Below are positions 6,817 to 34,305 of a stretch of 64,000 nt of DNA, piece by piece (within the stretch, counting starts at the first letter, position 1; every line of letters begins with the position of its first letter). The stretch is from a virus, in the IMG/VR virus record IMGVR_UViG_3300032235_000623, positions 32,001 through 96,000 of that record. One strand, given 5' to 3'. Both the position numbers and the translations under genes were made by a program. The notes under the pieces are model-generated. The model made no database searches. It worked only from the letters and a program-made list of their open reading frames with translations, and was not told where the DNA came from.

Positions 6817-6932
6817 CCACTCCAAGCACTAGTGGCTTTAGGGACCGCCCTAAACAAAAGCATGATAGTGTTGGACGCTCCCACTTATGTTAATGTGGAC
6901 ATGCAGACCTGAGTAAGTCTTTAAACTGCTCA
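6817..6932 (+). ncRNA. putative structured RNA ending in H-type pseudoknot
   Basis: CCACT/AGTGG, TTTAGGG/CCCTAAA, GCATG/CATGC; pseudoknot 6905-6932 recurs elsewhere. Confidence 0.5.
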
Positions 6933-6951
6933 CTAAGATTAAGGAAAAGAT

Positions 6952-7128
6952 ATGCCAACGTATGAATACAATTGTGTTAATTGTAAAATTAATAAGGAAA
7001 TTCCAAAGTCATTTAACGATGCAGATAGTCCTGAGCTGTGCGAAAAGTGCGGTGAAGCAATGAATAAAGTTTATAGCACATTTGGTATACAGTTTAAGGG
7101 TGGAGGATTCTACTCCACTGGAGGGTAA
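6952..7128 (+). CDS. FmdB-family zinc-ribbon regulatory protein
   Basis: MPTYEYNCVNC..CEKCG..FKGGGFYST; below ORF-track cutoff. Confidence 0.9.
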   Translation: MPTYEYNCVNCKINKEIPKSFNDADSPELCEKCGEAMNKVYSTFGIQFKGGGFYSTGG

Positions 7129-7185
7129 CTAACTTTTTCAATGATATAATTAACTTGTTATAGATGTTATAACAAGGAGTTATAG

Positions 7186-9321
7186 TTGACTAGGACTAAG
7201 TTATGGAGATTATCATTAGCAGCCATTTTGGGGTTTGGCTGGCTATTTATGACACCTGCATACAGTGACGATCCTTTAACATTAGCCGCTAAAGAAATTG
7301 AATTATTAAATAGTGCAGTAGATAAATTAGACTATAAAGAAGGTCTAATTAATATGATTGATATCGCAGAAAATAAGTTCACATATGCCAAAAATCTACA
7401 GGATGTTAGAAATACAGCAATTGCAGACTATGAAGATGCAGTTGATGCAGAAGCCTCAGCATTAGAAGAATTAGAAATTGCTCAGTCAAATGTAGATGGA
7501 CAAACAGCAACAGTAGCCCTTGCACTTGATAATAGGGACAATGCTTTTCAAAATAAAAATAACGCACAAGATGCTCTCAATATAGCTAATATTAATCTAC
7601 AAACAGCACAATCTAATATGCAATCTGCAGGTGGATCAGGACTGCAATACACTGTATATAATCTTGCAAGAGTTTGGCCAAGCATAGCTGTGCCAGATTC
7701 CGTTATATGCTCTGGAACATGGAATTCAAACTCTATGCAACTTCCTGTTTGTGGCAATAGATATGAGAATATAGTAGTTAAGTTTACAGGACAAATAACA
7801 GTTCCAGATCATTGGACATCAACATATTTTGCAGGCTATACAGATGATGGGTTTAGAATGTACATTGATGGACAACTTGCAGTAAACAACTGGGTAGAGC
7901 AAGGTGTAAGGTGGAGCAACTATTCACCAGTTTATGATGTTACAACAGACAAGACATTTGATGTAGAAATTTGGTGGTACAACGGTGGAGGACCAGGATC
8001 TTATCACCTTGGTTGGGCTATTCCTGGAGGATGGACTGGAGCAGGATGCGACTATACTGGTGGTTGGGGAGTAGGATTTAGTTGTAATCTTGGAACATTC
8101 TCTTCTGGATCAGGACCAACACAGGCACAAATAGATGCTTATAACCAAGCACTTGAAACAAGAAATGCAGCACAACAAGATTATAATAATGCACTATCAG
8201 AATATAATGACAAACTAAATGTATACAACCAAGAGGTTGCAACACTAAACTCATTAAATCAAACATTAACTAATAAAGAATCTGAGTATGATAATGCAGT
8301 AAATGACACAGAGGATGCTTTGTCTGAAAAGAATAATGCTATAAATGATTTTAATAACGCTATAAATGATCTAAATAGCGCAATTGATGACGCATGGCGT
8401 TACTATGATGAGCAGTCAAAAAGAGAAATTCAGAGAGCAATCGCTCAAGCAGCTGCCAACGCTGCTGCAAACCAGCCAAAGCCAGAGCCATCCCCAAAAC
8501 CAACAATTGAACCAGAAAAGCCAAAGCCTTCTCCGCCACCAACAGATAAACCTGAGCCTAAGCCAAGCAATGCTACTGGAACAGAAGAACCAGGTCCAAA
8601 GCCAACACAGCCAGGACCTAAGCCAGAGCCAACACAGCCAGAAAAGCCTAAACCTGAACCAACAAAGACAAAAGAGCCTAAACCAACACCTGCTCCAAGT
8701 CCTGAACCAAAACCAGAACCTACTATTGAGCCAGAGCCTAAACCACTGCCAAGACCAGAATTTAAGCCAGCAGAAAATATTGATCCAGTTATCAAAGATG
8801 CAGAGCTAGCAGCACTTATTCCAGAAAAAGGAAGCGGAAGCACAGAGGATCTTTCTGGAGTTATTGCTAATCTAACTAGCAAAGATAATAAATTAGTTAA
8901 GCTTTCTCCAGAGCAAACAGCAGCAGTAAGTCAGACCCTCAAGGCTTTGACTCAAGAAGCAAAGAAAGAAATTGCTTCAGATCTTGGAATTTCATCATCA
9001 GAAGTTACAAAGGTTGCGGATGCAATGAAGTCGGATCCCAATATAGCATCAGCATTTGTTGAGTTCTCGGAAAGAGCAGAGCAGGCTGGAGACACATCTA
9101 TGCCATTTACCTTGGCAGATGCAACAACTGAAGTTGCAACAGAAGCATTTTTATCTGATCCAATAGGAGCAATTTCGGACATTAATTTTGAAAAATTACT
9201 TAGCCCATCAGAATGGGGTAAAGATATGACTGACGATCAGAGAGAAAAGGCACAAGAGGTAGTTGTGCCTGTAATTATTGCTGGAAATATTGTGGCAGCA
9301 GCCATGACAAGGAGGATATGA
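7186..9321 (+). CDS. secreted/surface protein with PA14 domain, coiled coils and Pro-rich linker
   Basis: Signal peptide; FTGQI..TDDGFRMYIDG..NNW; PEPK/PKPT tract; hydrophobic C-terminus. Confidence 0.75.
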   Translation: MTRTKLWRLSLAAILGFGWLFMTPAYSDDPLTLAAKEIELLNSAVDKLDYKEGLINMIDIAENKFTYAKNLQDVRNTAIADYEDAVDAEASALEELEIAQSNVDGQTATVALALDNRDNAFQNKNNAQDALNIANINLQTAQSNMQSAGGSGLQYTVYNLARVWPSIAVPDSVICSGTWNSNSMQLPVCGNRYENIVVKFTGQITVPDHWTSTYFAGYTDDGFRMYIDGQLAVNNWVEQGVRWSNYSPVYDVTTDKTFDVEIWWYNGGGPGSYHLGWAIPGGWTGAGCDYTGGWGVGFSCNLGTFSSGSGPTQAQIDAYNQALETRNAAQQDYNNALSEYNDKLNVYNQEVATLNSLNQTLTNKESEYDNAVNDTEDALSEKNNAINDFNNAINDLNSAIDDAWRYYDEQSKREIQRAIAQAAANAAANQPKPEPSPKPTIEPEKPKPSPPPTDKPEPKPSNATGTEEPGPKPTQPGPKPEPTQPEKPKPEPTKTKEPKPTPAPSPEPKPEPTIEPEPKPLPRPEFKPAENIDPVIKDAELAALIPEKGSGSTEDLSGVIANLTSKDNKLVKLSPEQTAAVSQTLKALTQEAKKEIASDLGISSSEVTKVADAMKSDPNIASAFVEFSERAEQAGDTSMPFTLADATTEVATEAFLSDPIGAISDINFEKLLSPSEWGKDMTDDQREKAQEVVVPVIIAGNIVAAAMTRRI

Positions 9322-9515
9322 TGAAAATAATTAAAGGTTTATTTAATTGGATATTAGAAGCAGTTAAAGAAAGTATTGCCCAGGTATGGACCCTTCTTGG
9401 CTTCTTTATTGCTTGGCTAACACTGACTGGAACAGCCCAAGATGTTGTTGCGGTAGCTACTATTGCTGCCACTATTATATGGCTGGTAACTATCCCTCTT
9501 CGTAAAGACGAGTAA
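9318..9515 (+). CDS. small two-TM membrane protein
   Basis: Two hydrophobic segments; coupled start. Confidence 0.7.
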   Translation: MMKIIKGLFNWILEAVKESIAQVWTLLGFFIAWLTLTGTAQDVVAVATIAATIIWLVTIPLRKDE

Positions 9516-9531
9516 ATGCTATAATAGTGGT

Positions 9532-9735
9532 ATGAGGAAGCTAATTGCTATTGCCCTGTCTGGGCTATTAATGGTATCATTGAGTAGTTGTGGGGTACCA
9601 CAGGATAGATATCGTTATCCATGCCAAGATCCAGCTAATTGGAAAAAGGCAGAGTGTAATCCTCCAATATGTGAATCTTCTGGCACATGCACAAAAGATT
9701 TAGTTAAAGACTATGAGGTAGTTCAGAATGGCTAA
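9532..9735 (+). CDS. small lipoprotein with multiple Cys
   Basis: Lipobox LSSC; RYPCQDP..C.PP.C...GTC. Confidence 0.75.
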   Translation: MRKLIAIALSGLLMVSLSSCGVPQDRYRYPCQDPANWKKAECNPPICESSGTCTKDLVKDYEVVQNG

Positions 9736-10174
9736 AGTACGTAGAAATCCTGCAGAGCTGGATGCGTTACTAAAATTTATCCTAGGTATCACTTTAGGAA
9801 GCATTTTATTTTTTACAGCAGTAGGAATTTTGTATGGATTGCTATTTGTACAGCAACCACTAAACGGTCAATCCGAAAACGATAAAATGTTTTTTAATGT
9901 TCTTGGATCAGTTGCAACATTTATTACAGGAACACTAGCTGGACTATTAATAGGTCAGAGTGGTGCTAAGGATATCATGAAGGCACAACTTGATAATAAA
10001 GAAATGGATGCAAGAAATACTCAGGCTGACAAAAAGTTAGAATCAGAATTAGAGATTGCAGAAAAAAAAGTTGATGTTGAACTAGATGCAGTAAGAGCTC
10101 GTTTAGCTGCTAAGCCAGATGGAGCAATGCCAGCAGAACAAGCAGTCGACACAGATTGGGATAAGGAAGACTAA
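9728..10174 (+). CDS. two-TM membrane protein with C-terminal coiled coil (holin-like)
   Basis: Two TM helices; directly upstream of endolysin. Confidence 0.6.
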   Translation: MAKVRRNPAELDALLKFILGITLGSILFFTAVGILYGLLFVQQPLNGQSENDKMFFNVLGSVATFITGTLAGLLIGQSGAKDIMKAQLDNKEMDARNTQADKKLESELEIAEKKVDVELDAVRARLAAKPDGAMPAEQAVDTDWDKED

Positions 10175-10176
10175 TA

Positions 10177-10776
10177 ATGGCACAAGATGATTTTCCAGTA
10201 CCAGCAGAAACTGCTAAGGCTCCAAAAGGTAGCGTTGCTCGTCTTATTCAAATCGCTAAGTCTCAAGTTGGATACATTGAAGGTCCAAAAGACAATGAAA
10301 CAAAGTATGGTGCTTACACAAAGGCTAACTTCCAGCCATGGTGTGGCTCATTTGTAAACTGGTGTGCAAACGAAGCTGGCGTAAAGATTCCTAATACAGT
10401 TTATACTCCAGGTGGTGCAGCAGCATTTAAGAAGGCTGGTGCATGGATTGATGGAGACATTGCAGATCCAGAGCCAGGTGATATTGCCTATTTTGATTTC
10501 CCATCAGATGGTGTCGATAGAATTTCTCACGTAGGTATTGTTGTTGAAGACAACGAAGACGGAACAGTCTGGTGTATTGAAGGAAATACTTCTTCTAATA
10601 AAAAGGGAAGTCAAAGAAATGGCGGAGAAGCTTGTAAGCAGCTTCGTGCATATAAGAAAAATAAAGCAGGAGTAATGGTTTCAATTGTAGGGTTTGGACG
10701 TCCAAAATTTAAATCTACATCAACCAAGTCATCATCTCCATCAGATGGAAAAGTCTGCCCAACTTGTGGCAAATAA
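10177..10776 (+). CDS. CHAP-domain peptidoglycan amidase/peptidase (endolysin candidate)
   Basis: PWCGSFVNW, PGDIAYF, HVGIV, IEGNT. Confidence 0.88.
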   Translation: MAQDDFPVPAETAKAPKGSVARLIQIAKSQVGYIEGPKDNETKYGAYTKANFQPWCGSFVNWCANEAGVKIPNTVYTPGGAAAFKKAGAWIDGDIADPEPGDIAYFDFPSDGVDRISHVGIVVEDNEDGTVWCIEGNTSSNKKGSQRNGGEACKQLRAYKKNKAGVMVSIVGFGRPKFKSTSTKSSSPSDGKVCPTCGK

Positions 10777-10791
10777 AATTGAAGGATAAAA

Positions 10792-11571
10792 ATGTCTAAA
10801 GAAGGATATAAGCCAACATCAGGAATGCAGTCTGCAGCAAGACGTGCCATTAAGCTAAAAGAACAGGGAAAAGCAAAAGGTGCTGGAACTGCAGTTGGTT
10901 GGACAAGAGCTGGACAATTAGCAAGAGGAGAAACTTTAAGTCTTTCTACAGTTAAACGTATGTACTCTTATTTTTCTCGACATGAAGTAGATAAAAAAGG
11001 AAAAGACTGGGATAATGCAGAAAGCCCATCAAATGGTAAGATCATGTGGCTTGCCTGGGGCGGAGATGCAGGATATTCATGGTCAAGAAAAATTGTTGAA
11101 AGAGAGAAGAATATGAAAAAATCATTAGAATTAAATGAGATAGTGGAAGAGATTAAAGATATCCTTGATGACGTAGTTAACCCAATTACCAAGGCAATTG
11201 AAGTTGAGATTGAAGAAGACGACGAAGAGGATGACATGGAAGACACTGAGGGTTGTGACTGTGAAGGTTGCAAGGAGTGCAAAGCAAATGGTGGATGCAC
11301 AGAAAAGATGTGTTCAGGACATAAGAAGATGAAGAAGTCTGATGATCTATCAGATGAAGATATCTCAAAGTCTTATGAGTCAGATAACGAAGAAGAAGAC
11401 AAGTGGGATAACATGGAGAAGGCTTGCTGGAGTGGTTATGTGCAGCAAGGCATGAAAGAAAAAAATGGTAGAAAAGTTCCTAACTGTGTACCAATTAAAA
11501 AGGCTACAGATGTAGAGGAAAAAGAAGAGCCTGTAAAAAAGTCTATATGGAGTGGAACTTTTTTAAAATAA
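10792..11571 (+). CDS. hypothetical protein, acidic/Cys-rich C-half
   Basis: TVKRMYSYFSRH..WLAWGG domain and CWSGY..VPNCVP motif. Confidence 0.7.
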   Translation: MSKEGYKPTSGMQSAARRAIKLKEQGKAKGAGTAVGWTRAGQLARGETLSLSTVKRMYSYFSRHEVDKKGKDWDNAESPSNGKIMWLAWGGDAGYSWSRKIVEREKNMKKSLELNEIVEEIKDILDDVVNPITKAIEVEIEEDDEEDDMEDTEGCDCEGCKECKANGGCTEKMCSGHKKMKKSDDLSDEDISKSYESDNEEEDKWDNMEKACWSGYVQQGMKEKNGRKVPNCVPIKKATDVEEKEEPVKKSIWSGTFLK

Positions 11572-11635
11572 ACTATTGACATAGATAGCATACCTCTGTA
11601 TACTATTACAGTAGGTTCAACCAAAAAATGGACTT

Positions 11636-11869
11636 ATGTTACATTTATATGAAAATGGAGTAGAGATACTCAGAAAAAAGATATCTAGTAAAAATGTAGA
11701 TACCTATTGGGATAACTATAATTTTATTATATGGGAAAAAAATCAAGGCGGATATTCAGATACAAAAGGTGTATTTAGAAACAATTCTTGGGGAATAGCT
11801 AATACTATTCATATAAACCAAAACGGAACTTGGATATTACCGCTAAAGTATGTCAAATATTTTAAATGA
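11636..11869 (+). CDS. hypothetical protein
   Basis: ORF after TTGACA-17-TATTAC promoter-like site. Confidence 0.65.
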   Translation: MLHLYENGVEILRKKISSKNVDTYWDNYNFIIWEKNQGGYSDTKGVFRNNSWGIANTIHINQNGTWILPLKYVKYFK

Positions 11870-12164
11870 ATTAGGAACAGACGAAGACAAGTTCGCTTGG
11901 TGGGACATTGCAGTCTGTTCTGGCATGGAAACAAATCTTTTTTATGATACATACGAGTCTGATCATAATATTGCAAAAAATATTGATCAAGCTTGTTTAT
12001 CTTGTCCAGTTATTGCAATATGCTATAAGAATGGAACTGAGAATAATGAGTATGGAGTTTGGGGCGGAGTTTATTTAAATTTCGGCCAGCACGATAAGCA
12101 AAGAAATACGCATAAGAGTAAAGAGATTTGGAAGGAATTGAAACGTAAACATGCCCAAATCTAA
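11850..12164 (+). CDS. whiB: WhiB-family Fe-S transcription regulator
   Basis: C..C-x2-C-x5-C and GVWGG. Confidence 0.9.
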   Translation: MSNILNELGTDEDKFAWWDIAVCSGMETNLFYDTYESDHNIAKNIDQACLSCPVIAICYKNGTENNEYGVWGGVYLNFGQHDKQRNTHKSKEIWKELKRKHAQI

Positions 12165-12480
12165 TATGCACGACAATAAACATTTTAAGCATGGAATCAA
12201 TATGTGGACTGGTGAGCCAAATAAACCAGTTTTTTATAATGATGAAATGAGAAAAAGATTAAGAGAAATAAAAAGACCACATATGCTAATGATGGATGTA
12301 GCTATGTACCCAGAATTTTTAGCTTTAAGATTATATGAAGATAATTTTATTCAATTTAGTGGAACTAAAAAAGAAGAGGTTATCGATTATGTTACAAAGG
12401 TTAAAAAAATGATCGAGTCTTACGGAGTAAGATGCGAATTAGAAGGGGTCCCAAGTGATAAGTCCATCGGAAAAATTTAA
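12151..12480 (+). CDS. hypothetical protein
   Basis: ORF track, operon context. Confidence 0.7.
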   Translation: MPKSNMHDNKHFKHGINMWTGEPNKPVFYNDEMRKRLREIKRPHMLMMDVAMYPEFLALRLYEDNFIQFSGTKKEEVIDYVTKVKKMIESYGVRCELEGVPSDKSIGKI

Positions 12481-12628
12481 TGTATATATACCTTCTGAAG
12501 AAGAGTACGGATATATAGAATCATTAGGAGCTTTTGTTTCAGAAGTTTCTTATACAAAAAATGGAGTTGTTTACAAAGAAATGATTGAGAACGAAGATTT
12601 TGTGATTATTGATGAGGAGTCTAATTAA
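12455..12628 (+). CDS. small hypothetical protein (57 aa)
   Basis: GTG start, fills gap, TAATG coupling. Confidence 0.5.
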   Translation: MISPSEKFNVYIPSEEEYGYIESLGAFVSEVSYTKNGVVYKEMIENEDFVIIDEESN

Positions 12629-12864
12629 TGGAAAAGATATTGTGTTATTCATGCAACAAAAGTAAAGCAAACCTTACACTTGTCAAATCTTCACTGCTTG
12701 GCATAAACTTATTCATGTGCGAATCTTGCAAATCAGAAAAGATGGAGCCAAGATGGGTTGTAATTATCGCTGGAAGACAAAATGGATCTGAGTCTGTAAA
12801 AGATTTTATAGCAAAAAAGCGATATCTTGGAAATGAAATTTCGGCTTCTGAATTATTAATTTAA
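12628..12864 (+). CDS. small zinc-binding hypothetical protein
   Basis: CYSC..CESC. Confidence 0.7.
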   Translation: MEKILCYSCNKSKANLTLVKSSLLGINLFMCESCKSEKMEPRWVVIIAGRQNGSESVKDFIAKKRYLGNEISASELLI

Positions 12865-12897
12865 TTAAATATATTTATCAGGTATAATATATCTATA

Positions 12898-13218
12898 ATG
12901 AAAATAGATATAGCTACCCTTATTTTGTCATTACTTGCAGCAATTTTGAGCGGAATGGGAACCGCCATAATTGCTGGAATTAAAGACTCAAAAAAGGAAA
13001 AGGTTAGACGCCAAGAGCGTGACCAAGACCATCTTAAAATGGAAATAAAAGATTTAAAAATTCAATTATATGAGCTAGAAAAGCAGTTGACTGAATGGAA
13101 AGATAAATATTATCATGCAATTCAGCAATTAATTGAAGTTAAGTCTGAATTAGAACAAACATTAATTCAATTAGACCATATTAATATACATGTGGAAGAG
13201 CAGTCTAGCAATCAATAA
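12898..13218 (+). CDS. membrane-anchored coiled-coil protein
   Basis: N-terminal TM, heptad repeats. Confidence 0.7.
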   Translation: MKIDIATLILSLLAAILSGMGTAIIAGIKDSKKEKVRRQERDQDHLKMEIKDLKIQLYELEKQLTEWKDKYYHAIQQLIEVKSELEQTLIQLDHINIHVEEQSSNQ

Positions 13219-13240
13219 ATAAAAATAGTACAATAGAAGC

Positions 13241-13807
13241 ATGACTTGTATTGTAGCCGTTATCCATGAAAACAAAGTTTATCTTGGCGGAGATTCCGCT
13301 GCATCAGACGACAAAACTGGGCTCATAGTTCAAAGAACTGATCCAAAAGTTTTTAAGGTTGGACAATTCGGTATTGGGTTCACAGATTCTTTTAGAATGG
13401 GACAGATACTTCAGTATAATTGGACGCCACCTAAGTATGTTCCAACAGTTGGCAATAAAAATTTAGATAAATTTATGCGAACTAAATTCGTTGATTCAAT
13501 CAAGGAAGTATTCAAAGAACATGGATACGGAAACTTTGGATCCAACACTGAAGATGGAGATGAGGGTGGCATATTCCTTGTGGCGGTAGCTGGAACTGGA
13601 AGAATATTCACTATAGATTTAGACTATCACATCGGAGAGGCTGACGTAATGTACATGGCTGAAGGAAGTGGTCAGCAAGTCGCATTGGGATCATTATTCT
13701 CAACAGCACAAGTAAAAACACCACGTAAGCGTGTCAGAATGGCCCTAGAAGCCTCAGCAAAATTTATTATGAGCGTACGTGGCCCCTTTACAATAATAGA
13801 AGTATAA
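13241..13807 (+). CDS. HslV/proteasome-beta-like Ntn protease
   Basis: N-terminal MTCIVA, GGDS, PKVF, GSG..ALG. Confidence 0.8.
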   Translation: MTCIVAVIHENKVYLGGDSAASDDKTGLIVQRTDPKVFKVGQFGIGFTDSFRMGQILQYNWTPPKYVPTVGNKNLDKFMRTKFVDSIKEVFKEHGYGNFGSNTEDGDEGGIFLVAVAGTGRIFTIDLDYHIGEADVMYMAEGSGQQVALGSLFSTAQVKTPRKRVRMALEASAKFIMSVRGPFTIIEV

Positions 13808-13821
13808 AGTATAATTAAACT

Positions 13822-14037: not shown

Positions 14038-14042
14038 TATAA

Positions 14043-14213: not shown

Positions 14214-14250
14214 TATTGACAGAACTCAATAATTATTGTATTATTCATTT

Positions 14251-21328: not shown

Positions 21329-22113
21329 AGATTCATTACATGACAGACTCAGGAAACGATCTATCTGAGCTATCAAATATCCTAGATGATGCAGGCTACT
21401 ACTCTCTCCTTCTGGTATATCATTCAACAAAACCAGATGCCTGGATTAAATGTGCTAATGCTTTAAATAAAAAACATAAGTTTAAGTACATGATAGCCAT
21501 GAGGCCGTATGCAATTAGCCCAGAGTACTTTTCTATGATGTGCAACGCATTTAATGAGCTGTCTCCAAACAGGATAATGTTTAACATAGTAGCTGGAGAC
21601 TTACATAAAGAAGAGAAAAGCGTAGAGCATGCTTTATTTATCGGCGACCTTATAGAAACATCAGAAAAGAGAGTAAAGTATACTGCTGAATGGATAAAGA
21701 AATTAAAAGAAATTAATAAGATAAGGCCATTCCCAGAGATAGTAATGTCTGGGTTTTCTGATAAAACATTAGAAACTGCTGCAGAGTTTGCGGACTATAA
21801 TTTATGTATGATTGATACATACAAAGAGCATACAGATAGATTTAATAAAAATAAAAATAGAATGGTTTCTGCTCAGATTATAATAAGGGATACGTATGAG
21901 GAAGCAAAAGAGTTTGCTGATAAATATGTGCCAGAAGAGCACAAAAGAAGGTGGACAATTTTTGGAACAGAGTCTGACATTATTAATGAGTTTGAATATC
22001 TTGAGTCTATTGGGGTCACAGACATAATGCTTAGATCGCATAATTCAGATTTAAAGGTTAATTTAACTCACAATTTTGTAAAAAAATATAACTCAAGAGA
22101 AATGGTACAATAA
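21325..22113 (+). CDS. luciferase-like (LLM/SsuD-type) flavin monooxygenase
   Basis: KYMIAMRP, RIMFNIVAG, IIRDT.EEA, FGT. Confidence 0.8.
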   Translation: MKIHYMTDSGNDLSELSNILDDAGYYSLLLVYHSTKPDAWIKCANALNKKHKFKYMIAMRPYAISPEYFSMMCNAFNELSPNRIMFNIVAGDLHKEEKSVEHALFIGDLIETSEKRVKYTAEWIKKLKEINKIRPFPEIVMSGFSDKTLETAAEFADYNLCMIDTYKEHTDRFNKNKNRMVSAQIIIRDTYEEAKEFADKYVPEEHKRRWTIFGTESDIINEFEYLESIGVTDIMLRSHNSDLKVNLTHNFVKKYNSREMVQ

Positions 22114-25202: not shown

Positions 25203-25291
25203 AGCTCCACAAAATAGGACATATTAGCTCCTAGCTCCTATATCCCCCTCCTAATTATCTCCTCTCTATGAGCCTCCTAGAGGCTTTTAAA

Positions 25292-25317
25292 GTGGAGTAA
25301 AGTGGAGTATTGTGGAG
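25292..25317 (+). promoter_or_regulatory. MraZ-box-like triple repeat
   Basis: GTGGAG x3 at exact 10-bp period. Confidence 0.6.
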
Positions 25318-25674
25318 AATATTACTATCAATTCATGTCTAATTACTATTATTATATATAGATAAAGATATATGAGTAATTGAACACCATCTCACAATAT
25401 GGACGTAATCCCAATTTGAGCAATTTGCAGCATATTCTGCCATTTCTGTCAATAGTGGCATATTCAGGCAATTTTGTCAAGCCTTCGTAAAGGAAAAATT
25501 GTGCCCATTTCGCCAAAAATTTGATCCAAATTCTGACAGATATTATATCTATTTTATTATATTGTTATAACATTTTGTTATATTCTATATTCATTTTGTC
25601 TTATTCTGATCAAAATTTCAGGGACATTTTATAAGCTGTCGTAAACGAATTATTTGGCCCATAATTTTTTCATA

Positions 25675-26513: not shown

Positions 26514-27729
26514 TTAATTAACTAATTCGTAGTCATATGGGTCAATAGAGTTATCTATCTCTAATTGGATCCATTCTGTTCTATCTGCAGCATCAGCCTT
26601 TTCATAGGCCTCCTGCAAGCTTTCCGCCTCCACCTCCAGATAATACTTGTCTACAAGGTCTCCGAATATTTTGAATTTAGTCATCCTCTTCCTCCTCATC
26701 TTCTTCAAACATTAAGTCTGTCATAATATCATTATCTGTCATCCAGTCACGTACATCTTCGTAGTGCTGTTCTGCCCCGTATTCTAGAGAGAACCCGTGT
26801 CCGTTTTTAACAGACTCACACAGCCTGTCCCATACCTCATCCTCTGACATCTCAAAGCGGTACTCCTCATCGGCCATAAAACCCTTGATTGTGCTCCAGG
26901 TCCATAGCCAAACCAGGGATAGCCCCAGGTCCGTTGTATCTAGGATATCGAGACATTGGTTTAGTTTATCTTTATCTTGTGGCTTCACGTTGCTTGGTCC
27001 TTTCATTAATTGAGAATGCTAATTGATAAGTTAATCCATATACAGCAGTCAAGGCGTCCATATAGCCTTCGTTGTACAGCCGCTCCACAGTGTCATCGTA
27101 GTCTTCATCTGAGCCCAATTCATTTGAGTTCTGTAGAAGAGGAACGAGGACCTGCTCGCATTCATACATCATGTTCTTCAATTCACCATGCAGAATGTCT
27201 GTCCCTGACTCACCAAGGTCGACGAGTTTCTGCAGGCGTGGTTCTAGTTCTGTAGTGTTCATTGGGCCATTATATCCTCTGCCACTGACAAAAAGTGGCG
27301 GGTAGCAATAATCTGTCCATTGATAGAGATATCCTCAATCTCTAAAGACTGATACTCATTTGATTCCATTTCTTCAAATAAATCCATTTCAGCCTGTAGA
27401 GCCTCAGAATCTTGCTCTAAACTAATTAGATGTAACTTCATATATTCGATTAATTGATTAGACATTTACTACCTCATATCTTTGAGTTAATCTATCATAA
27501 TATCTAGCAGCCTGACATGTGCAACTAAATATACCTGGTACATCTGAACATTCCCATTTATGTTCATGCATGATCGAAATACCCTTCTGCCCATAGGCCT
27601 TGTAAGAAATCATGAGCCATAACTAAATAATTATGAATTGCAGGATTATCATCAGCATTGACCAATAGGTCAGCTTGATAAACACCATACGTCATATCTG
27701 CTAAATCTTTTTGTGTGTAGCCCAACATT
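26514..27729 (-). CDS. run of small acidic hypothetical proteins (26514..26684, 26677..26988, 26972..27262, 27259..27465, 27564..27729)
   Basis: Overlapping start/stop coupling. Confidence 0.7.
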
Positions 27730-27891
27730 ATTTTACTTCCCAATACTCTAGTATTAGATTTAATGCAGAATGGATATTGCAATCACAATCCCCACCCATG
27801 TTATCCATAAATTCTAGATGACTATAATTGTCATCATAGATTTCATCTACTAATTGACCTACTGTCATTGCTCTTAGTTTGCTAATAGTTC

Positions 27892-28665
27892 TCATGCTTC
27901 CACCTTTTCTGTAGATTCCAATAATACACTATGGGTCTGACATTCTTTCATAGCCTCTTCATCCTGCCAAGAGCCTTGGTTGCATTCTGAGCAGAATTCA
28001 CCACAGTCATCTTCACAATAATCTAATGTATTAAATGATTGGCAAGCATAGCAGCGATTCTCATATTCTAGAATCTCTTTTACTTCACCACGGACAATCT
28101 CATATTCCCCACCCCAACCTGTTTCTTCCTCATACTCCAATGTGAGCAGGCAGTTTGGAACAAGATTAGATAGTTTAGTTAGAATAGTTACAGCAGGTGA
28201 CCATGCAGTCTCATATTTATAGACAACCCAGTTGTCATCACCATCTGACTTATATTCAATTATTTCTGTGTTTGGATACTTGTCATCATCAGATACAGCC
28301 ACATCCCATTTGGTGCCCCAATTAGAATTATTCCATGAGTACCAATCCTTTTGAGTCTTAGCAAACTCAACAGATTTAGCAAACCAATTAGGGTCCTTCA
28401 TATCTACACCATCACGTGCAGGCTGGCAGGCATACTCCTCATCAGTAATACCTTCATCTTTATATGAGTGGATATTAAAGAAAGCAAAGACAGGATTAGA
28501 ATAAGTTACTTCTTTAAATTTGGTGGGGAAACCCATAGATGAAATATCACCCATACCATGTGTCTCAATAGCCAATGTAAAAGGCTTATTCAATCTATCT
28601 TTAATCATATCTACCTCAGACTTAGGTCCTTGGATAGTCAATGTGTTATATACCCAATTTGGCAT
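27892..28665 (-). CDS. DUF1281/YubB-like phage protein
   Basis: MPNW..N.L.I.G, DWYSWN..NWGTKWD, ETAWSP. Confidence 0.75.
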   Translation of the reverse strand: MPNWVYNTLTIQGPKSEVDMIKDRLNKPFTLAIETHGMGDISSMGFPTKFKEVTYSNPVFAFFNIHSYKDEGITDEEYACQPARDGVDMKDPNWFAKSVEFAKTQKDWYSWNNSNWGTKWDVAVSDDDKYPNTEIIEYKSDGDDNWVVYKYETAWSPAVTILTKLSNLVPNCLLTLEYEEETGWGGEYEIVRGEVKEILEYENRCYACQSFNTLDYCEDDCGEFCSECNQGSWQDEEAMKECQTHSVLLESTEKVEA

Positions 28666-28826
28666 TATCGGCACACTCGCTTTGTTACATATTTGTAATA
28701 TGTATATGCTTTAGAAGATTTATCCTTAACTTGATATCTCTTATATGTACATACCTCAGCATTTGCTGGGGCGGAAACAATAGGAAGTAATCCTAGTATA
28801 ATACCTGCGATAATAGTTTTACGCAT
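28665..28826 (-). CDS. small secreted cationic two-Cys peptide
   Basis: Signal peptide ending ANA; mature EVCTYKRYQVKDKSSKAYTYYKYVTKRVCR; ACGAAAGGA RBS. Confidence 0.7.
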   Translation of the reverse strand: MRKTIIAGIILGLLPIVSAPANAEVCTYKRYQVKDKSSKAYTYYKYVTKRVCR

Positions 28827-28909
28827 TTTATATCCTTTCGTTGATATAAGAGAATTATACATTGGACCACCGACAAATGGAATAGATATGCTGTGTGAAT
28901 TGGACCACA

Positions 28910-28983
28910 TTGTTAGGTTTTGATCAAAGCTTGTTAGGTTTAATTAGATCTATTGTTAGATTTTATCAATCATTGTTAGGTTT
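28910..28983 (+). repeat. iteron-like direct repeats TTGTTAGRTTT x4
   Basis: Starts 28910, 28931, 28953, 28973. Confidence 0.8.
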
Positions 28984-29064
28984 GTGGTCAATATCACAGA
29001 ATTTCAGGAGATTTTGACTTGACCTCGTAAAAGAAATAATGTACTCTCTTGTCTTTGTGGGCAT

Positions 29065-29219
29065 AAAAAGATCCCCCGCCGATACCGCAGTATCAAGCGG
29101 GGGAATTATAGTAGGGCTGCCTGGCCAAACGAAAGGAATTAAGTAAATGCCTGCGTACTTAGCGACTTGGCGAATGCCTTAGTAGCCGCACCCCACATCC
29201 AAAGACAAACTAGTTGCCT
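29065..29219 (-). ncRNA. candidate ~150-nt sRNA with anti-SD tract and terminator
   Basis: TGATATAAT at 29226-29234, nested stems, CCCCCGC..GCGGGGGATCTTTT terminator. Confidence 0.45.
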
Positions 29220-29231
29220 AGGATTATTATA

Positions 29232-30199
29232 TCATACTGGAAGAAGTTCGTCCGAATACTTTTCACAGAATGCGGACAGGTCCATGGTAAATAAAGCCTC
29301 ATTCTTCATTCCACGTACCTTGTTTGACTGATTCCTAAAGTCATCTTGCTCATGAAGACTAAAGGTTTGGTCCTTCCAATTAATTACAGGAATCTTGTGC
29401 TCATTGTCTGATAGAGAGTTGACCTGTAGACCCCAGCCAGTCTCCATATTCCATTGGTCACCAATTAGACGTGATGTAGCAATGCGTGTTGCATATGAAT
29501 CATCGTTCCAACGTGCTCGTGCATGGACTACAGCATCCGCTAAATTCTTTAGCATGTCATAGCCAGCCCAGTGTCCGTATAGTACAATTGTCTCTCCGCT
29601 ATCCTGTACGAATACGAAGTTTGCTCTGTTACCCATTTTATTCCGCCGTTTCTAGTTGAGGTGTTTCTTCTGTCTTATTCAATTCTATAATTTCATATGA
29701 CACCTTGTCAAGTGCCTCTTTATTTTTATTGTAGTGGTGCCCGCAGAAAGCTAGCTCGCCTTCTACTAATTTAATTAAATACATAGCTTGGGCGGACCCA
29801 CATTGGTCGCAGCCAATCCATCTATTTAAATCGTCTGTGCTCATATATTATTCTCTTCGATCATATCAGCAAGACGGTCAAGCAACCAGGTATCGATATC
29901 GTTAATATCAATCTCTCGTAACTTTTCTATGATTTCTTCACGAGCAAATTTATACCCGTCATCAAATCCATCTTTATAATCTGACATATTATCTCCTAAT
30001 AACCTGTTGTTTCATATTCGCTAAAATAAGTTTCAGTTAAGTTAAACTTATCTCTAATGCGACTTACTTTCTCAATACTACCAGTTCCAATGTTGAAAGT
30101 CAACGGTCCAATTAGTTGAGGGTCAAGTCCAGTTATCTCGGCATCCCAGAAGGCCCTTTGCAGGGCCAACTGAGATGGAGCGGTGAGTTCAAAATACAT
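29232..30199 (-). CDS. small hypothetical proteins (29232..29636, 29638..29844 Cys/His-rich, 29996..30199)
   Basis: ORF track, coupled starts. Confidence 0.7.
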
Positions 30200-30855
30200 T
30201 AGTAAGCCTCACGAACATGGCAGACTTCTTGCTCATCAATAACGATGTTGCCATCCTGTGCATCGACATATAGCGCATCTGTAATTTCTGATTCAAGGTC
30301 ATAATCTTCTAATAGATTTAGTGTAATTGTTCCGCTAACTTCAACAGTTGCGGTAAATTCCACATCCTTGGTTAATTCAATGCCAAGCGCTTCAGCAATT
30401 GACTGCAAAGTATCTTGGTCGTCTGAATCAGCATATGACTCAAGAATAATATCTTTAACTGTATTAATCTTAGACTGAAGCAGGCTAACAGTTTTCTGTG
30501 ACTGTCGTCCATTGTGCAGGTCCCACTCAAGAGATGCAACCTTTGATGTTGTATATTCAGGGTCAGAATATCCGTGAATAACTTTATATGTAACTAGTAA
30601 ATCAGGATTGTAAGCAACTGCAGGTGAATGAAATGCATCTGAGCCAATTGTTGTTGTTTCCATCGTTTCCTCTTTCGTTGTAGTTATAGGTGGTATTGTA
30701 GCATCTTCCACTGACAATAATGTGCAATTAGAGTTGCAACGACATGTGAGGTCCATCACACCCGCTGGCCATCCATATCCATCTTTAATTGTATATTCGA
30801 TTAAAGCATCACAGTCTCCCGTGCATACCCAGGTGTATTTCTGATATGTTGTCAT
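30199..30855 (-). CDS. hypothetical protein with internal in-frame promoter/RBS/start at 30663
   Basis: Leaderless-type start 30855; second cassette 30695-30716 inside frame. Confidence 0.65.
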   Translation of the reverse strand: MTTYQKYTWVCTGDCDALIEYTIKDGYGWPAGVMDLTCRCNSNCTLLSVEDATIPPITTTKEETMETTTIGSDAFHSPAVAYNPDLLVTYKVIHGYSDPEYTTSKVASLEWDLHNGRQSQKTVSLLQSKINTVKDIILESYADSDDQDTLQSIAEALGIELTKDVEFTATVEVSGTITLNLLEDYDLESEITDALYVDAQDGNIVIDEQEVCHVREAY

Positions 30856-30980
30856 GGCGAGTATTGTACAGGACCCCACTGACATTTACAAGGATTTTCG
30901 GGAAAAAGCTTTGTGATACGTAACACATTTTTTTGGCCTTCAGATCTGGGGGCATCTCATTATCTGAGATTCAAATCTTG

Positions 30981-31054
30981 CGATCTGTATGGGACTTGAA
31001 CCCACGACCTCTACCGTGACAGGGTAGCGCTCTAACCAACTGAGCTAACAGACC
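30981..31054 (-). tRNA. tRNA-Asp(GUC)
   Basis: GGTCTGT/ACAGATC, loop CTGTCAC, TTCAAGT. Confidence 0.93.
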
Positions 31055-31095
31055 AAATGGTGAGCAGTTTTAAATCTTGCTCAGGATTTTATTAT

Positions 31096-32103
31096 TTAGA
31101 AGGCTTTAACCAACTTCATAATTTTATTTTTTTCTGCAGTTAAGATTGGGTCAAAACCGCTTGCACCCGCCATTAGGGATTCAGAATTTCCACGTGATGT
31201 GCGGAAATAATCTAGACGTTCAGTTAGCGCATTGAATGCACCCCACTTTGTGCCCTTGATATTAGCGTTAGTTGGTGAGTTATGATACAAGTCATCAAGA
31301 AGAACAACTTTGTTTTCCCACTTTGTGAGAGCAATTTTAGATGCATCTTCTTTTGGCTTTGGATAAATTGTCTGAATCAACTTTGAAAATTCGGCGTTAG
31401 TAATCTCTTGCTTGAAGAGTTCCTGCGCTTCTTTTTCAAATTCATCAAAGTAACCAAGTGCAAGACCAAGAGTCTCACGAGCAACTTGAATGCGACCTTC
31501 TACAGATTGCGTGTGGCGAATCTTGAAAGATTGCTTTGCATTACGCATTGCAAGATTCAAAGTGTTTTGGCATACAACACGAACAGGGGTAATTGCTGCT
31601 TGAACAGCAACAGAACCGTCGTGTGATGTCCATACAATTAAATAAAGTTTAGTTGCATCGTTAGCGCCTTGTGGGTCAAGCACCATTGTGCGAGGAATAT
31701 CCACAGTGCCGAAAACAACTTTGCCCTTTTTCAATGAGCCAGCAGATTCCCAACGGCAGTCAGCGTTGGCATCATGAATTGCATCAGCGAATGCAAACAA
31801 TTCTTCATTCTGCACAGGCTTGTAGCGCTTTCCAACAGTTGCAAGAACATCAGTCCCGCCATTGAATGGATTAGTGCGAACAACTAAAGATGAATTTGAA
31901 ACATCGTTCCAAGATTCGTCAATGTGATTTGTGATTGGAGATAAACGAACATCCCAATTTGCTAACTTTGCTTCTTCAAGCATTGTTGCAGTTGTAACTT
32001 CCTCATCTTGTGAGAAGATACGATTTGCAAGGTTGTGCCATGCAGGAGCGCCACGAAGAGCAAATGCAACTTCGCCGTTTTCGACTTCGAGATTGTGAGC
32101 CAT
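31096..32103 (-). CDS. DUF932/DUF945-family (TIGR03299-like) phage protein
   Basis: PAWH.L, VG.RY.PVQN, SHDGS, TPVRVVCQNTL, WGAFNALTE; start MAHNLE after CGAAAGGA. Confidence 0.85.
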   Translation of the reverse strand: MAHNLEVENGEVAFALRGAPAWHNLANRIFSQDEEVTTATMLEEAKLANWDVRLSPITNHIDESWNDVSNSSLVVRTNPFNGGTDVLATVGKRYKPVQNEELFAFADAIHDANADCRWESAGSLKKGKVVFGTVDIPRTMVLDPQGANDATKLYLIVWTSHDGSVAVQAAITPVRVVCQNTLNLAMRNAKQSFKIRHTQSVEGRIQVARETLGLALGYFDEFEKEAQELFKQEITNAEFSKLIQTIYPKPKEDASKIALTKWENKVVLLDDLYHNSPTNANIKGTKWGAFNALTERLDYFRTSRGNSESLMAGASGFDPILTAEKNKIMKLVKAF

Positions 32104-32281
32104 ATTTTTTCCTTTCGGTTGATTGATTTGGCAATTATAGCAGGGGGGTCTGACATTGTAAAGGATTAAAGATAAGATGTCCGAATTGTCTAACGTGATC
32201 AATCTCACAAAATTTTGGGAGTTTTCCACAGCTCGTCGTAAGCCTGTGGATAACCCCTCAGTTGTTGCGGGCACAATTTGA

Positions 32282-32305
32282 GGGGCGGGAAAAAGATCCC
32301 GCCCC
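32282..32305 (-). terminator. GC-rich hairpin terminator
   Basis: GGGGCGGGA..TCCCGCCCC just after stop of 32311..32568. Confidence 0.6.
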
Positions 32306-32310
32306 AAGCT

Positions 32311-34305
32311 TTAAACTAGTCCCAACTCTTCAGAAGTTAGTTTATATTTATTGTGTTTGTTTACTGTTTCCATTGGTAGAAAGATTGCTAGCGTCTTCTG
32401 CTTCTTCTTATTATCATAAACATAAGCACGAACAGTGCCAGCAAATCTACGTAGGTTTGAGAATACCATTTCAGATAGATATTCTCTATTTACTCCCTCA
32501 TCAGAATAAATAGTTAAATCATTTGCTTTGTTATCATCATAGATTTCAACTCTAAAACGATTTTTCATTTGATTACTTTCTGTTAGTAGTTATTTTGGTT
32601 GAGCAGTTTAGCACTTGACTTACTCAGGTCAGGGTTCTTTTGCTTTAGAGTATTCTAACATAGGGGGCTAGTTTTGTCTAGCCCCCATTTTATTAGAGAT
32701 ACTTAGCAATTTGCTTCATAGTAGAAGCATTTACTGTTTCCTCATCTGTCATCTTGAGAATTGTTAGGGCATTTGTGATGTCCTCTACAATTTCATTGTA
32801 TGTGTGTTGGTGCATGATTGTGAAATCACGCTCAGGCTCTTTAGGGAAATCGCTTTCCTTTACAATTAAATCAAAATCAACATTGAGAGAGTTGTTCCAA
32901 GAGCGATAGTTTGTGCGGAAGTTTTCAGCCTTCTTGATGTTTGCAATAGCAAAATCCTGAACTTCCTTACGCCACTTTTCTCTTGACTTCTCATACTTCG
33001 CTTCGTTTGCACCCTGCTCAGCATAGTCTTTCTTGATTGTTGCCAACTTTGTTTCCAAAGCCTTGATTACCTTTGGTGTTGCCACCTTTACTGTGATTGC
33101 TCTTGACATAGTTTTTCCTTTTCTATTTGGTTGAGGTTTTAGTATAACATAGGGGTCTGACAAACCCCGTAGGGTGAGAGTTCTTACTTACGACATTGGG
33201 CGAGAACACTCTCTAAACTGCCCCTGTTTCGATTTACTTACTCAGCGTATGCAGAAGTCCAACGCTCTGTGCCATTTACATCTAGCAAGATACGATTAAC
33301 TCCGCTTGGGTGATTATCAACCGCTTTGATAATACCTGTGATACCGCTTGCTGTTGTTGTGTATGTCTGACCGATTTCCATTTGTTTCTCCTTTGTTTGT
33401 TTGTTGGTAGTATTATAGCCTATGCCACTGACATTTTTAGTCTTCTTCGGTGTAATCTTCCTCACACCAGGCGCTTAGGTGGTGCTGTTCAATAATTGCC
33501 CAGGCAGGCGCTGTATCCATGCCTCGATAAGATACTCCTTCAGGCATTGAGATTTCACGATTTAGATCGTCTTCCCAGTATGCATCTATAGCATCTATGC
33601 AAGGTTGCACCATTGATAGCGGGACGGGTGGATAGTGATTACCCTGTAAGTGATAACCAATTGAAGCTTCTAGGCTTAAGCCCAATTCATCTGTTGCTAA
33701 TTCATAAGCAAGATTACTTCCCATTTATAACCTCGTTTCCAATAGTTTCCATTTCGTCAATAGACTCCATAAGTTCTTTTACTTGACTTTCGGTAAGTAG
33801 AATTTTAGTTGCCTTATCTACTGCAAGGCTAGCGATAGCGCATGAGTAAAGATAAATTCCTTTAGCAAATTCTTCATTACTCATTTCGTTATGATTATGT
33901 GTTAGGTATCCAGCAAGCCCCATAACTTCTTCGTCCATTATAGAGTCGCTAGTTGCTTCGATTAGAGCATAAGCGGTTGATAGCATTTTTTCCCTTTCGT
34001 TTGTTTTATGGAATTATAGCAGGTGGGTCTGACAAGCAGACCCACCCTATCAATTATGCTAGGGCTATGTAAGCCTGAGAGTAGCCTTCATTTACACGGT
34101 CAAGTTCATCCTGAATTTCAGACTTAGACATTAGAGAAACTTTGCCGATTAACTCACGAATAGCGCCTTCGTTCATCTGATTAAAGATAGCGGTTGGCAT
34201 TTTGCTTACTTGCTGATACATTGAACCTTCGATATCCAGTTTAGATACGAATTCTACGCCATCAACTGTGAATGGAAATAATGCCCATCTAGTCATATCT
34301 TTCAT
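32311..34305 (-). CDS. small hypothetical proteins (32311..32568, 32693..33109, 33238..33381, 33437..33724, 33714..33986, 34054..34305)
   Basis: Most have their own promoter copy and RBS. Confidence 0.7.

Follow-up and report, generated by a model that had tools for sequence, protein, structure and literature searches.

A compact H-type RNA pseudoknot of ~30 nt, whose consensus reads NNNC-C-UGRRYA-N-GNNN-NNAAAC-URYYCA, is present at three sites of a viral genome, and these sites belong to an extensive, uncatalogued family carried by prophages and tailed phages from many bacterial phyla. The knot is linked more tightly with the upstream gene's end than with the ribosome-binding site (RBS) or tRNA downstream. 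We suspect, at a probability of roughly 0.4, that it serves as a cis-acting mechanical barrier or end-cap, which would divide polycistronic phage mRNA into segments closed to exonucleases and ribosomes.

Three copies of the pseudoknot in one viral genome

The DNA analyzed here (the window) comprises 64,000 nt, positions 32,001 to 96,000, of the 108,849-bp virus record IMGVR_UViG_3300032235_000623. The original prediction placed a pseudoknot at three sites, and the searches bear this out. The pattern CTGAGYAA-N(4-16)-AAACTGCTCA has exactly three matches in the window (6905-6932 on the plus strand, 31089-31061 and 32631-32600 on the minus strand) and none in 100 dinucleotide shuffles. A covariance model scores the copies at 49.1, 52 and 39.4 bits, against 12 bits for the runner-up in the genome, and a pattern search of the whole record revealed no further copies. 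As predicted, stem 1 changes in a compensatory manner (AGAC/GTCT, AAATC/GATTT, TGAC/GTCA); stem 2 is TGAGYA/TGCTCA at all three sites, with C-G alternating with U-G at one position; and every copy lies in gene sense. Hundreds of other phage contigs lend this structural prediction much further support.

In copy 1 (6905..6932, plus strand), stem 1 pairs AGAC (6905-6908) with GUCU (6917-6920) and stem 2 pairs UGAGUA (6910-6915) with UGCUCA (6927-6932), the remaining bases being the loop 1 C (6909), the junction A (6916) and loop 3, UUAAAC (6921-6926). The stop codon of hsp20 lies 103 nt upstream, and the ATG at 6952 of a 58-aa zinc-ribbon ORF (MPTYEY..CxxC, 6952-7128) comes 20 nt after the knot. 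Copy 2 (31061..31089, minus strand) consists of AAAUC (31089-31085) and GAUUU (31076-31072) in stem 1, UGAGCA (31083-31078) and UGCUCA (31066-31061) in stem 2, loop 1 C (31084), junction A (31077) and loop 3 AAAAC (31071-31067). It abuts the stop codon of a DUF932/phrog_1221 gene (31096..32307, minus strand), from whose TAA (31098-31096) it is separated by a 6-nt spacer, and a tRNA-Asp (GTC; 30980..31054, minus strand) follows 6 nt beyond its end. About 20 related contigs share this arrangement of DUF932 gene, pseudoknot and tRNA-Asp, the gap being 3-13 nt, and DUF932/phrog_1221 is the most frequent upstream neighbor within the related freshwater phage clade.

Copy 3 (32600..32631, minus strand) pairs UGAC (32631-32628) with GUCA (32619-32616) and UGAGUA (32626-32621) with UGCUCA (32605-32600); loop 1 is C (32627), the junction A (32620), and loop 3 (32615-32606) has 10 nt with AAAC at its end. 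This copy occupies the 5' leader of an 85-aa ORF (32311-32568), whose ATG at 32568 comes 31 nt after it, and a promoter-like -10 box is found ~20 nt upstream. A G+C-rich hairpin (32663-32686) embeds a sigma-70-like promoter, TAGACA-17-TG-TAGAAT (32680-32652; whole feature 32652..32686, minus strand), which places copy 3 at about +14 of the primary transcript. The RNA data came from four freshwater metatranscriptome runs, as assembled contigs of relatives, which cannot show transcript starts or ends; these contigs join across the 1.6 kb that separates copies 2 and 3.

A looser variant at 33176-33223, previously proposed as a further member, does not belong here: it is antisense, has no covariance model match at E<=10, and forms a long stem with an 18-nt loop, not a hairpin of 4-5 bp and 8 nt. 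Near it, the sense-strand 9-mer CTGAGTAAG (33237-33246) has neither stem.

Covariation and distribution across phyla

Covariation and position counts were taken from the matches listed from scans of viral contigs and bacterial genomes of many phyla, so that totals are lower bounds. Stem 1 has 4-5 bp of free sequence with a C-G closing pair, and 3-5 pairs form in most copies. Among the matches listed, at least 3 consecutive flanking pairs occur in 112 of 126 unique pattern matches, compared with ~5% expected, and the closing pair is C-G in 109/111 and 348/383 in two counts. The hairpin loop of 8 nt (C-U-G-R-R-Y-A-N) pairs with the 3' strand, forming the 6-bp stem 2, UGRRYA/URYYCA. Loop 1 is a single C (357 of the 383 matches listed), and loop 3 usually has 6 nt and terminates in AAAC (302/383). 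One junction nucleotide is variable (A 170, U 157, C 38 and G 18 among the matches listed).

Stem 2 was followed in three scans that each left one partner free, and the partner was complementary in 74/74, 61/62 and 53/69 of the matches listed. Where A3 is replaced by G, the partner is C in 69 and U in 5 (n=74); where G4 is A, C or U, the partner is U in 53, G in 4 and A in 4, with one mismatch (n=62); and where G2' is A, the 5' base is U in 50 and C in 13, all among the matches listed. A mirror control is invalid as a null because the complement retains the fold, and an AAAC-anchored control was used instead: the AAAC-anchored pattern gave 511 matches among those listed versus 38 in the control.

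The loop and stem lengths seen here agree with those expected of a classical coaxial knot, in which a single deep-groove nucleotide is enough to bridge six pairs and the minor groove of stem 1 accommodates an A-rich loop. Nearest-neighbor energies describe weak stems (stem 1, -1 to -2.5 kcal/mol; stem 2, -3.3 to -5.6 kcal/mol), and any barrier strength would need putative tertiary contacts. Across phyla, some 12 positions hardly vary: the C of loop 1, the C-G that closes stem 1, the terminal stem 2 pairs and AAAC.

The knot was found in phages and metagenome-assembled genomes of many phyla (at least the matches listed), ranging from Lactobacillus to Paracoccus to phages of candidate phyla, with 1-7 copies per genome among the matches listed. 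One carrier is a T7-like Paracoccus phage, transcribed by its own polymerase; this and the spread over many phyla speak against host RNA polymerase or Rho as the target of the mechanism. No Rfam 15 family matched over the knot, whether the window was searched at gathering score, two loci at E<=10, or 19 other loci. Megablast of both regions found no near relatives among GenBank phages, and literature searches by topic and by literal sequence returned only unrelated primers. Four spacers of a type III-A CRISPR array target the knot, and their predicted crRNAs are antisense to it.

Gene-end placement and resemblance to known RNAs

According to the original prediction, the knot stands just before an RBS or a tRNA. 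This holds for the three sites, but the tighter link, to the end of the upstream gene, had been missed. Among the matches listed, ~40% of copies start 4-9 nt past the upstream stop codon, a spacer to stem 1 that peaks at 6 nt and is almost never below 4, and the first base of that stop codon piles up 12-16 nt ahead of loop C; the distance from the knot to the next ORF is broad (median 78 nt). Orientation matches the downstream gene in 165 and the upstream gene in 173 of 217 intergenic copies among the matches listed. Frequent direct 3' neighbors, besides an RBS, are tRNAs at 3-13 nt, type III hammerhead ribozymes with predicted cleavage 5-7 nt past the knot, and the DUF2800 RNA, which begins at the base immediately after it. 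The hammerhead adjacency is real but rare (2/344 sites by a strict detector and a few more by eye, among the matches listed). G is depleted at +1/+2 after the knot, and the 30 nt downstream are less structured than random 30-mers (mean MFE -2.2 vs -3.1). Transitions from a minor head protein to a scaffold or capsid gene are common contexts, and the flanking genes are highly diverse, falling into 73 and 78 clusters among the matches listed. When 2,938 ORFs from the loci were clustered in search of a co-occurring protein family, all that emerged was the synteny of a single phage clade; likewise, RBS and tRNA-Asp words were the only k-mers enriched in the 100-nt flanks, where a partner motif or a second conserved half was sought.

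The closest known elements are coremin/xrRNA_C and the luteoviral frameshift pseudoknots, and the knot belongs to neither. Coremin and its Watson-Crick variant occur in BNYVV RNA3, cucumoviruses and many RNA viruses (Dilweg, Gultyaev and Olsthoorn; PMC6546385, PMC10520033, PMC10321173). Coremin comprises a C-G-closed hairpin with loops such as CGAA or CGAGUAA and the spacer GUUAAACUAC, with GAG/CUC in the Watson-Crick variant; it brings Xrn1 and scanning ribosomes to a halt and promotes -1 frameshifting (PMC10520033, PMC10321173). Like the phage knot, it is a ~30-nt element of intergenic regions or UTRs, modeled as a luteovirus-like H-type knot, with a short hairpin (~4 bp in coremin hp1), a C-G closing pair, an unchangeable one-nucleotide loop 1, and a GA-containing hairpin loop with C at its start. 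A single U separates the tested heptaloop CGAGUAA from the phage loop CUGAGUAA, the A-rich linkers are GUUAAAC-U and NNAAAC-U, and in the Watson-Crick variant, as in the phage knot, loop GAG pairs with downstream CUC(A). In contrast, stem 2 is canonical, covarying and 6 bp long in the phage knot and has ~3 mostly non-canonical pairs in coremin. Furthermore, the coremin loop consensus YGAD/YGNNAD fixes G at loop position 2 (PMC10520033), whereas the phage knot has it at position 3. Of the 8-10-nt coremin spacer GUUAAACUAC, AAAC-U is common to the phage knot and nearly invariant there, whereas the remainder differs and forms the 6-bp helix. Coremin also needs hp2 directly after the spacer for Xrn1 resistance; a second hairpin of at least 4 bp starting within 3 nt of the phage knot was found in 12% of copies and 11% of shuffles, and the knot's bacterial hosts lack Xrn1. 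Convergence is the more probable source of the likeness, common descent being unlikely.

The -1 frameshift knots of luteoviruses and poleroviruses (BWYV, PLRV, ScYLV; 26-28 nt) resemble the phage knot in size and topology, in the C of loop 1 (1-2 nt), in an A-rich final loop ending by the junction, in a bulged-out junction nucleotide and in a ribosomal A-site codon 5-8 nt upstream. Unlike them, the phage knot has no overlapping -1 frame and no X XXY YYZ slippery heptamer upstream, where ordinary codons and a stop are found; its A-site codon is that stop, and its stem 2 has 6 bp versus 3 bp. With no slippery sites and closed frames, frameshift and readthrough signals were set aside. The preQ1-I aptamer (RF00522), at ~34 nt, is likewise an H-type knot that is marginally stable unless tertiary contacts form; its P1 has 5 bp, and its A-rich tail ends in AAAC ahead of the 3' strand of P2. 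Its ligand-pairing loop C is invariant, whereas the equivalent junction position of the phage knot is variable; the 6-bp P2 of the phage knot leaves no pocket, copies precede tRNAs and ribozymes, and an expression platform based on SD or terminator is absent. The RF00522 covariance model did not match at gathering score or at E<=10 with lax filters.

Other known elements were discarded too. A riboswitch does not agree with the missing expression platform, variable junction base and separate RBS, and the small aptamer offered by the original prediction is for the first two of these reasons unlikely. Among the matches listed, 30 of 259 copies (11.6%, against a 3% background) have at least 5 T within 15 nt, which does not make the knot an intrinsic terminator, and an own-strand terminator scan called none of the three window copies. 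Sigma-70-like sites lie upstream (54) and downstream (45) at no fixed distance, unlike a promoter; CCA after the knot is no commoner than single-base frequencies predict, unlike a tRNA-like 3' end; and for hammerhead, pistol, twister, hatchet and HDV-like ribozymes there was no Rfam match over the knot, hammerheads being only neighbors. RNase III hairpins between T7 genes and the ompA, ermC and aprE leaders likewise act in cis at borders of phage or bacterial polycistronic mRNA and set segment stability, but these are simple or bulged and defined by shape, whereas the phage knot is conserved in sequence across phyla.

A possible barrier on phage mRNA and its alternatives

On the barrier reading, the knot would act in cis on polycistronic phage mRNA, placed at the nearest distance to the stop codon that avoids unwinding; beyond the reach of the terminating ribosome, it is proposed to stay folded. 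It could then halt 5'->3' decay by RNase J or 5'-end-dependent RNase E scanning, 3'->5' exonucleases once RNase P or a hammerhead has processed the downstream RNA, and sliding post-termination ribosomes, and the stability and translation of adjacent segments would be decoupled. In vitro, coremin/xrRNA_C from RNA viruses of plants and fungi acts as such a barrier (PMC10520033, PMC10321173). The exonuclease-blocking or processing-linked element of the original prediction would fit the positional evidence and this analogue. Against the barrier reading stand the weak nearest-neighbor energies of the stems, the lack of the second hairpin that coremin needs versus Xrn1, the equal fit of the conserved loop and terminal stem 2 bases to a specific protein or ligand partner, and genome compaction, which alone could crowd the knot against the stop codon. 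Many likely hosts (beta- and gamma-proteobacteria) are not known to have a 5'->3' exonuclease, which also counts against it. Contexts are also mixed, including 5' leaders such as that of copy 3 and sites directly before promoters, so no single direction of protection covers all copies.

The ~12 near-invariant positions, and stems as marginally stable alone as those of ligand- or protein-stabilized knots such as preQ1-I, could mark a specific binding site for a conserved protein (host ribosomal or translation protein, RNase, phage protein) or small ligand, an operator or switch for the neighboring gene. We consider this unlikely, since no protein family co-occurs outside one phage clade, the flanking genes vary widely (73 and 78 clusters), the junction nucleotide that would specify the ligand in preQ1-I is free, and copies also precede tRNAs and ribozymes; nor is there a regular expression platform, a U-tract following in 11.6% and the RBS lying 10-35 nt or much further off. 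A distribution like that of small self-cleaving ribozymes (intergenic, in any gene context, near hammerheads, tRNAs and structured RNAs) and the highly conserved core might instead suggest that the knot marks or makes a cistron-separating cut, as hammerheads, RNase P sites and T7 RNase III sites do. Such a role seems quite improbable: ~30 nt with two short helices is below any known natural self-cleaver in size, no ribozyme model matched, the flanks are variable with no conserved unpaired dinucleotide outside the knot, and a following hammerhead or tRNA already supplies cutting activity.

The 4-9 nt between stop and knot equal the spacer of frameshift signals, which would set the knot at the mRNA entrance of a ribosome with the stop codon in its A site; there it could modulate termination or recycling, or block sliding and re-initiation, uncoupling cistrons. 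Coremin-type knots stall scanning ribosomes and withstand the ribosomal helicase (PMC10520033, PMC10321173), and junctions at which a scaffold or capsid gene follows a minor head protein are frequent. A ribosome-directed role is nevertheless decidedly unlikely, because ~60% of copies among the matches listed, including window copies 1 and 3, lie away from a stop codon, the copy 3 transcript has no upstream ORF, and slippery heptamers are absent; with two of three frames through the knot closed by TGA/TAA, recoding is excluded. Conserved sequence at gene borders, cassette differences between related genomes at such sites, and the joining of relatives' metatranscriptome contigs over the 1.6 kb from copy 2 to copy 3 would suit a DNA-level element (phage-polymerase promoter, operator, recombination site or single-strand DNA structure). 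This we regard as very improbable: the spacing of the two conserved blocks varies by up to 6 nt or more, the element is present in phyla with differing promoter rules, sigma-70-like promoters lie at no fixed distance, and both helices covary. The G-U pairs, found on the sense strand only, the orientation, which follows the genes, and the predicted antisense crRNAs indicate an element that works as RNA.

A bolder and more doubtful form of the barrier reading is that tailed phages of most phyla bear an exoribonuclease- and ribosome-resistant 30-nt knot converged on coremin/xrRNA_C, a universal 'bulkhead' whose invariance makes it a preferred target of type III CRISPR. If true, the conserved RNA would be a liability, against which type III systems gather spacers. 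If the barrier reading holds, the knot would be among the most widespread structured phage RNAs still absent from Rfam and the first xrRNA-like roadblock described in viruses of bacteria, and it would explain differing stabilities and yields of adjacent phage genes without promoters or terminators. It would also offer phage annotation a gene-end marker and synthetic biology a 30-nt insulator expected to work across phyla. Whatever the function of the knot, ~12 invariant bases, shared by carriers as distant as Lactobacillus, Paracoccus and phages of candidate phyla, point to a universal partner, one worth finding.

Knot copies in the phage genome and beyond

The virus record (108,849 bp, about 91% complete according to IMG/VR) belongs to a tailed phage; a tape-measure-like gene, genes for portal and ribonucleotide reductase, and nine tRNAs were identified in it. 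The window stretch or near-identical sequence is present in freshwater, aquatic and wastewater metagenome runs. Scanning the window with the pattern CTGAGYAA-N(4-16)-AAACTGCTCA returned exactly three matches, at 6909-6932 (+), 31061-31084 (-) and 32600-32627 (-). With the flanking stem 1 these form pseudoknots at 6905-6932 (copy 1), 31089-31061 (copy 2) and 32631-32600 (copy 3). The pattern was absent from 100 shuffles of the window, and the whole record holds no copies beyond these three. A covariance model built from knots of other phages scored copies 2, 1 and 3 at 52, 49 and 39 bits, against 12 bits for the best other match in the genome. Stem 1 is changed at three of four positions, with pairing kept in every copy, and stem 2 carries C-G or U-G. 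Thus the original prediction of three dispersed repeats, with a compensatory stem 1 and C-G/U-G alternation in stem 2, was borne out. It had also proposed a looser antisense variant at 33176-33223; this site has a different architecture, was not matched by the covariance model and was rejected as a family member.

By sequence, the three knots belong to a large family. The pattern occurs in more than 117 IMG/VR contigs and more than 118 records of one-genome-per-species GTDB contigs, in each case among the matches listed. The GTDB matches listed include many Saccharibacteria and other candidate-phyla MAGs, Lactobacillaceae, Clostridia and Bacteroidota, as well as alpha-, beta- and delta-proteobacteria, cyanobacteria, Nitrospira and Omnitrophota; this is a mixed set, comprising some prophages or mis-binned phage contigs, some CRISPR spacers and a few chance matches inside genes. 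Genomes of related phages, about 100 kb in size, contain one to seven copies each, mostly grouped inside 4-6 kb. Among cultured phages, a good copy (36 bits) lies 7 nt past a stop codon in the T7-like Paracoccus phage ParMal1, in the region 25280-25350 of OQ376858.1. Lacticaseibacillus phage R3.3 carries a decayed copy at the site where the knot is intact in a related prophage; at least one cultured phage can therefore do without the element. The decayed copy (L603:3206-3245; OP807345.1 near 21834-21869) reads CUAAGCAU ... AAACUACUCA, with two stem-2 mismatches, and its intact counterpart lies at L185:847-871. The original prediction had raised a possible match to a characterised Rfam family; no Rfam family was matched over the knot, and neither a catalogue entry nor a paper was found for this RNA.

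Fold of the knot and likeness to coremin

Covariation in both helices supports the predicted pseudoknot fold. At least three consecutive stem-1 pairs enclose the 8-nt loop in 112 of 126 unique exact-pattern matches (about 5% expected), and in a selected alignment the variable pairs include all four Watson-Crick types. Because the initial pattern fixed the stem-2 sequence, we ran three further scans in which a non-canonical base was forced on the 5' or 3' strand and the partner was left free, and counted the copies with an intact stem 1. Copies with A3 changed to G had C (69) or U (5) as partner (n=74); of the 62 with G4 changed to A, C or U, 61 had a partner U (53), G (4) or A (4) and one was mismatched; and G2' changed to A was accompanied by a 5' U (50) or C (13). 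A scan by structure alone, anchored on AAAC, yielded 511 matches, compared with 38 in mirrored controls. The H-type pseudoknot with covariation that had been proposed therefore stands on both the stem-1 and the free-partner stem-2 results.

The consensus is NNNC-C-UGRRYA-N-GNNN-NNAAAC-URYYCA. Stem 1 is closed by a C-G pair, loop 1 is C in 93% of copies, the terminal stem-2 pairs are U-A, G-C and A-U, the junction base varies freely and loop 3 is 6 nt long in 79% of copies. The two positions 3' of the knot are seldom G (2% and 5%); a G there would lengthen stem 2 across loop 1. These lengths match Pleij's rules, the classical stereochemical limits on H-type knots. By nearest-neighbour energies the helices are weak alone, so tertiary contacts would be expected. 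Seven sites (L019, L046, L069, L089, L091, L096) form a sub-class with AAAAA-GGCUCA in place of AAAC-UGCUCA, in which the junction-proximal A-U pair of stem 2 is lost.

The closest known element is coremin (xrRNA_C), an exonuclease-stopping knot of plant and fungal RNA viruses. It begins with a hairpin of 4 bp, closed by C-G, whose loop is YGAD, YGNNAD or, for example, CGAGUAA; a spacer GUUAAACUAC and a second hairpin follow. In a Watson-Crick variant the loop GAG pairs with a spacer CUC, and its authors modelled it as a luteovirus-like H-type knot. Coremin halts Xrn1 one base ahead of the hairpin, brings scanning ribosomes to a stall and promotes -1 frameshifting (PMC10520033, PMC10321173). 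In the phage knot we find the same closing pair, C in loop 1, GAG/CUC core and AAAC-U linker. In contrast to coremin, its stem 2 is a full 6-bp helix, its loop has G at position 3 and a second hairpin is lacking (12% vs 11% in shuffles); thus it is not a coremin member, and plausibly works like one.

Action as RNA and position at gene ends

Several features of the sequence argue that the knot acts as RNA and not as DNA. G-U pairs are confined to the gene-sense strand, and the gap separating the two conserved blocks is variable. The sense orientation originally noted held for intergenic copies, which agree with the downstream gene in 165 of 217 cases and with the upstream gene in 173 of 217. 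Furthermore, knot copies are found as CRISPR spacers: four in a complete bacterial genome (L240, 1,032,001-1,040,000), where they are part of an array with more than 76 repeats, and a fifth in a Cloacimonadota contig (L158) with a related repeat. The adjoining cas1 (1,041,165-1,042,058) and csm1/cas10 (1,050,172-1,052,442) assign the L240 system to type III-A. The usual crRNA tag left by Cas6 is 8 nt, and such a tag, AUUGAGAC, stands at the end of the repeat's reverse complement; the crRNAs of all five spacers should therefore be complementary to the sense RNA, the orientation that a transcript-targeting system would require.

The strongest positional regularity is with the end of the upstream gene. 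In 82 of about 200 copies, the nearest ORF upstream on the same strand has the first base of its stop codon 12-16 nt before the loop C, and stop triplets are three-fold enriched at offsets 12 and 13. The resulting spacer between stop and stem 1 measures 4-9 nt, most often 6, and hardly ever less than 4; window copy 2 obeys this rule (TAA, 6 nt, knot). A duplex can come to about +11 from the P site of a ribosome holding a stop codon without entering the helicase site, and the spacer is this nearest approach. Spacing to the following ORF varies widely (median 78 nt, shoulder at 20-40 nt). Flanking ORFs fall into 73 unrelated clusters upstream and 78 downstream, with minor head or morphogenesis genes recurrent upstream and scaffold, RNA polymerase and integrase genes downstream.

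Processed or folded RNAs often lie directly 3' of the knot. tRNAs (Asp, Arg, Leu) begin 3-13 nt past it in 25 cases and never lie directly upstream; type III hammerheads would cleave 5-7 nt 3' of it; and the Rfam DUF2800 RNA (RF02960) starts at the base after it in six loci (L016:285-445, L145, L155, L173, L194 and L211). The 5' end of this RNA (CCGUCAG...CUGAUCA) has a hammerhead-like look. The window's six-tRNA cluster (Arg, Asn, Lys, Trp, Ser, Leu; 5580-6320, +), downstream of a Nol-like carbamoyltransferase gene (3318-4757, +), is without a knot. The 100 nt from hsp20 to copy 1 (6817-6904, +) contain further hairpins, which had been noted separately as a putative kissing-loop RNA.

Sigma-70-like promoters occur on both sides of the knot at no fixed spacing, and copy 3 lies about 14 nt into the primary transcript from a good predicted promoter. 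G+C-rich hairpins at 32652-32686 (-) and 33140-33168 (-) carry a -35-like TGTCAGAC/TAGACA in the loop region, followed by TATGTTAnAnT; the same hairpin-embedded putative promoter also lies just downstream of the knot in related phages (L022, L075, L077, L096, L217, L234). In a relative's freshwater metatranscriptome contig, the ORF at 32693-33163 almost abuts copy 2 and the intervening 1.6 kb (31085 to 32693, with the 85-aa and DUF932 genes) is skipped, which suggests gain or loss of gene cassettes at knot copies.

A candidate barrier at cistron borders

Several readings were set aside. Slippery sites are absent and frames closed, excluding a frameshift or readthrough signal; a U-tract follows only 11.6% of copies, excluding a terminator; and the variable junction base and absent expression platform exclude a preQ1-I-type riboswitch. 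The T7-like carrier phage uses its own polymerase, which argues against mechanisms through host RNA polymerase, Nus factors or Rho. In one rival reading the knot would be a specific binding site; no tie to a protein family was found for it. Other rivals would make it a processing signal, with processed RNAs often lying 3' of it, or a ribosome-directed element, with the stop codon at a regular spacing.

The likeness to coremin leads us to favour, tentatively and with a probability of roughly 0.4, a cis-acting barrier or end-cap. As such, the knot would sit just outside the terminating ribosome, and so would never be unwound. Copies occur in a 5' leader, at a gene end ahead of a promoter and in front of processing sites, and these mixed contexts suit a bulkhead that works regardless of direction better than one that protects a single side. 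Such a bulkhead would stop RNA-threading enzymes and ribosome sliding at the borders between cistrons.
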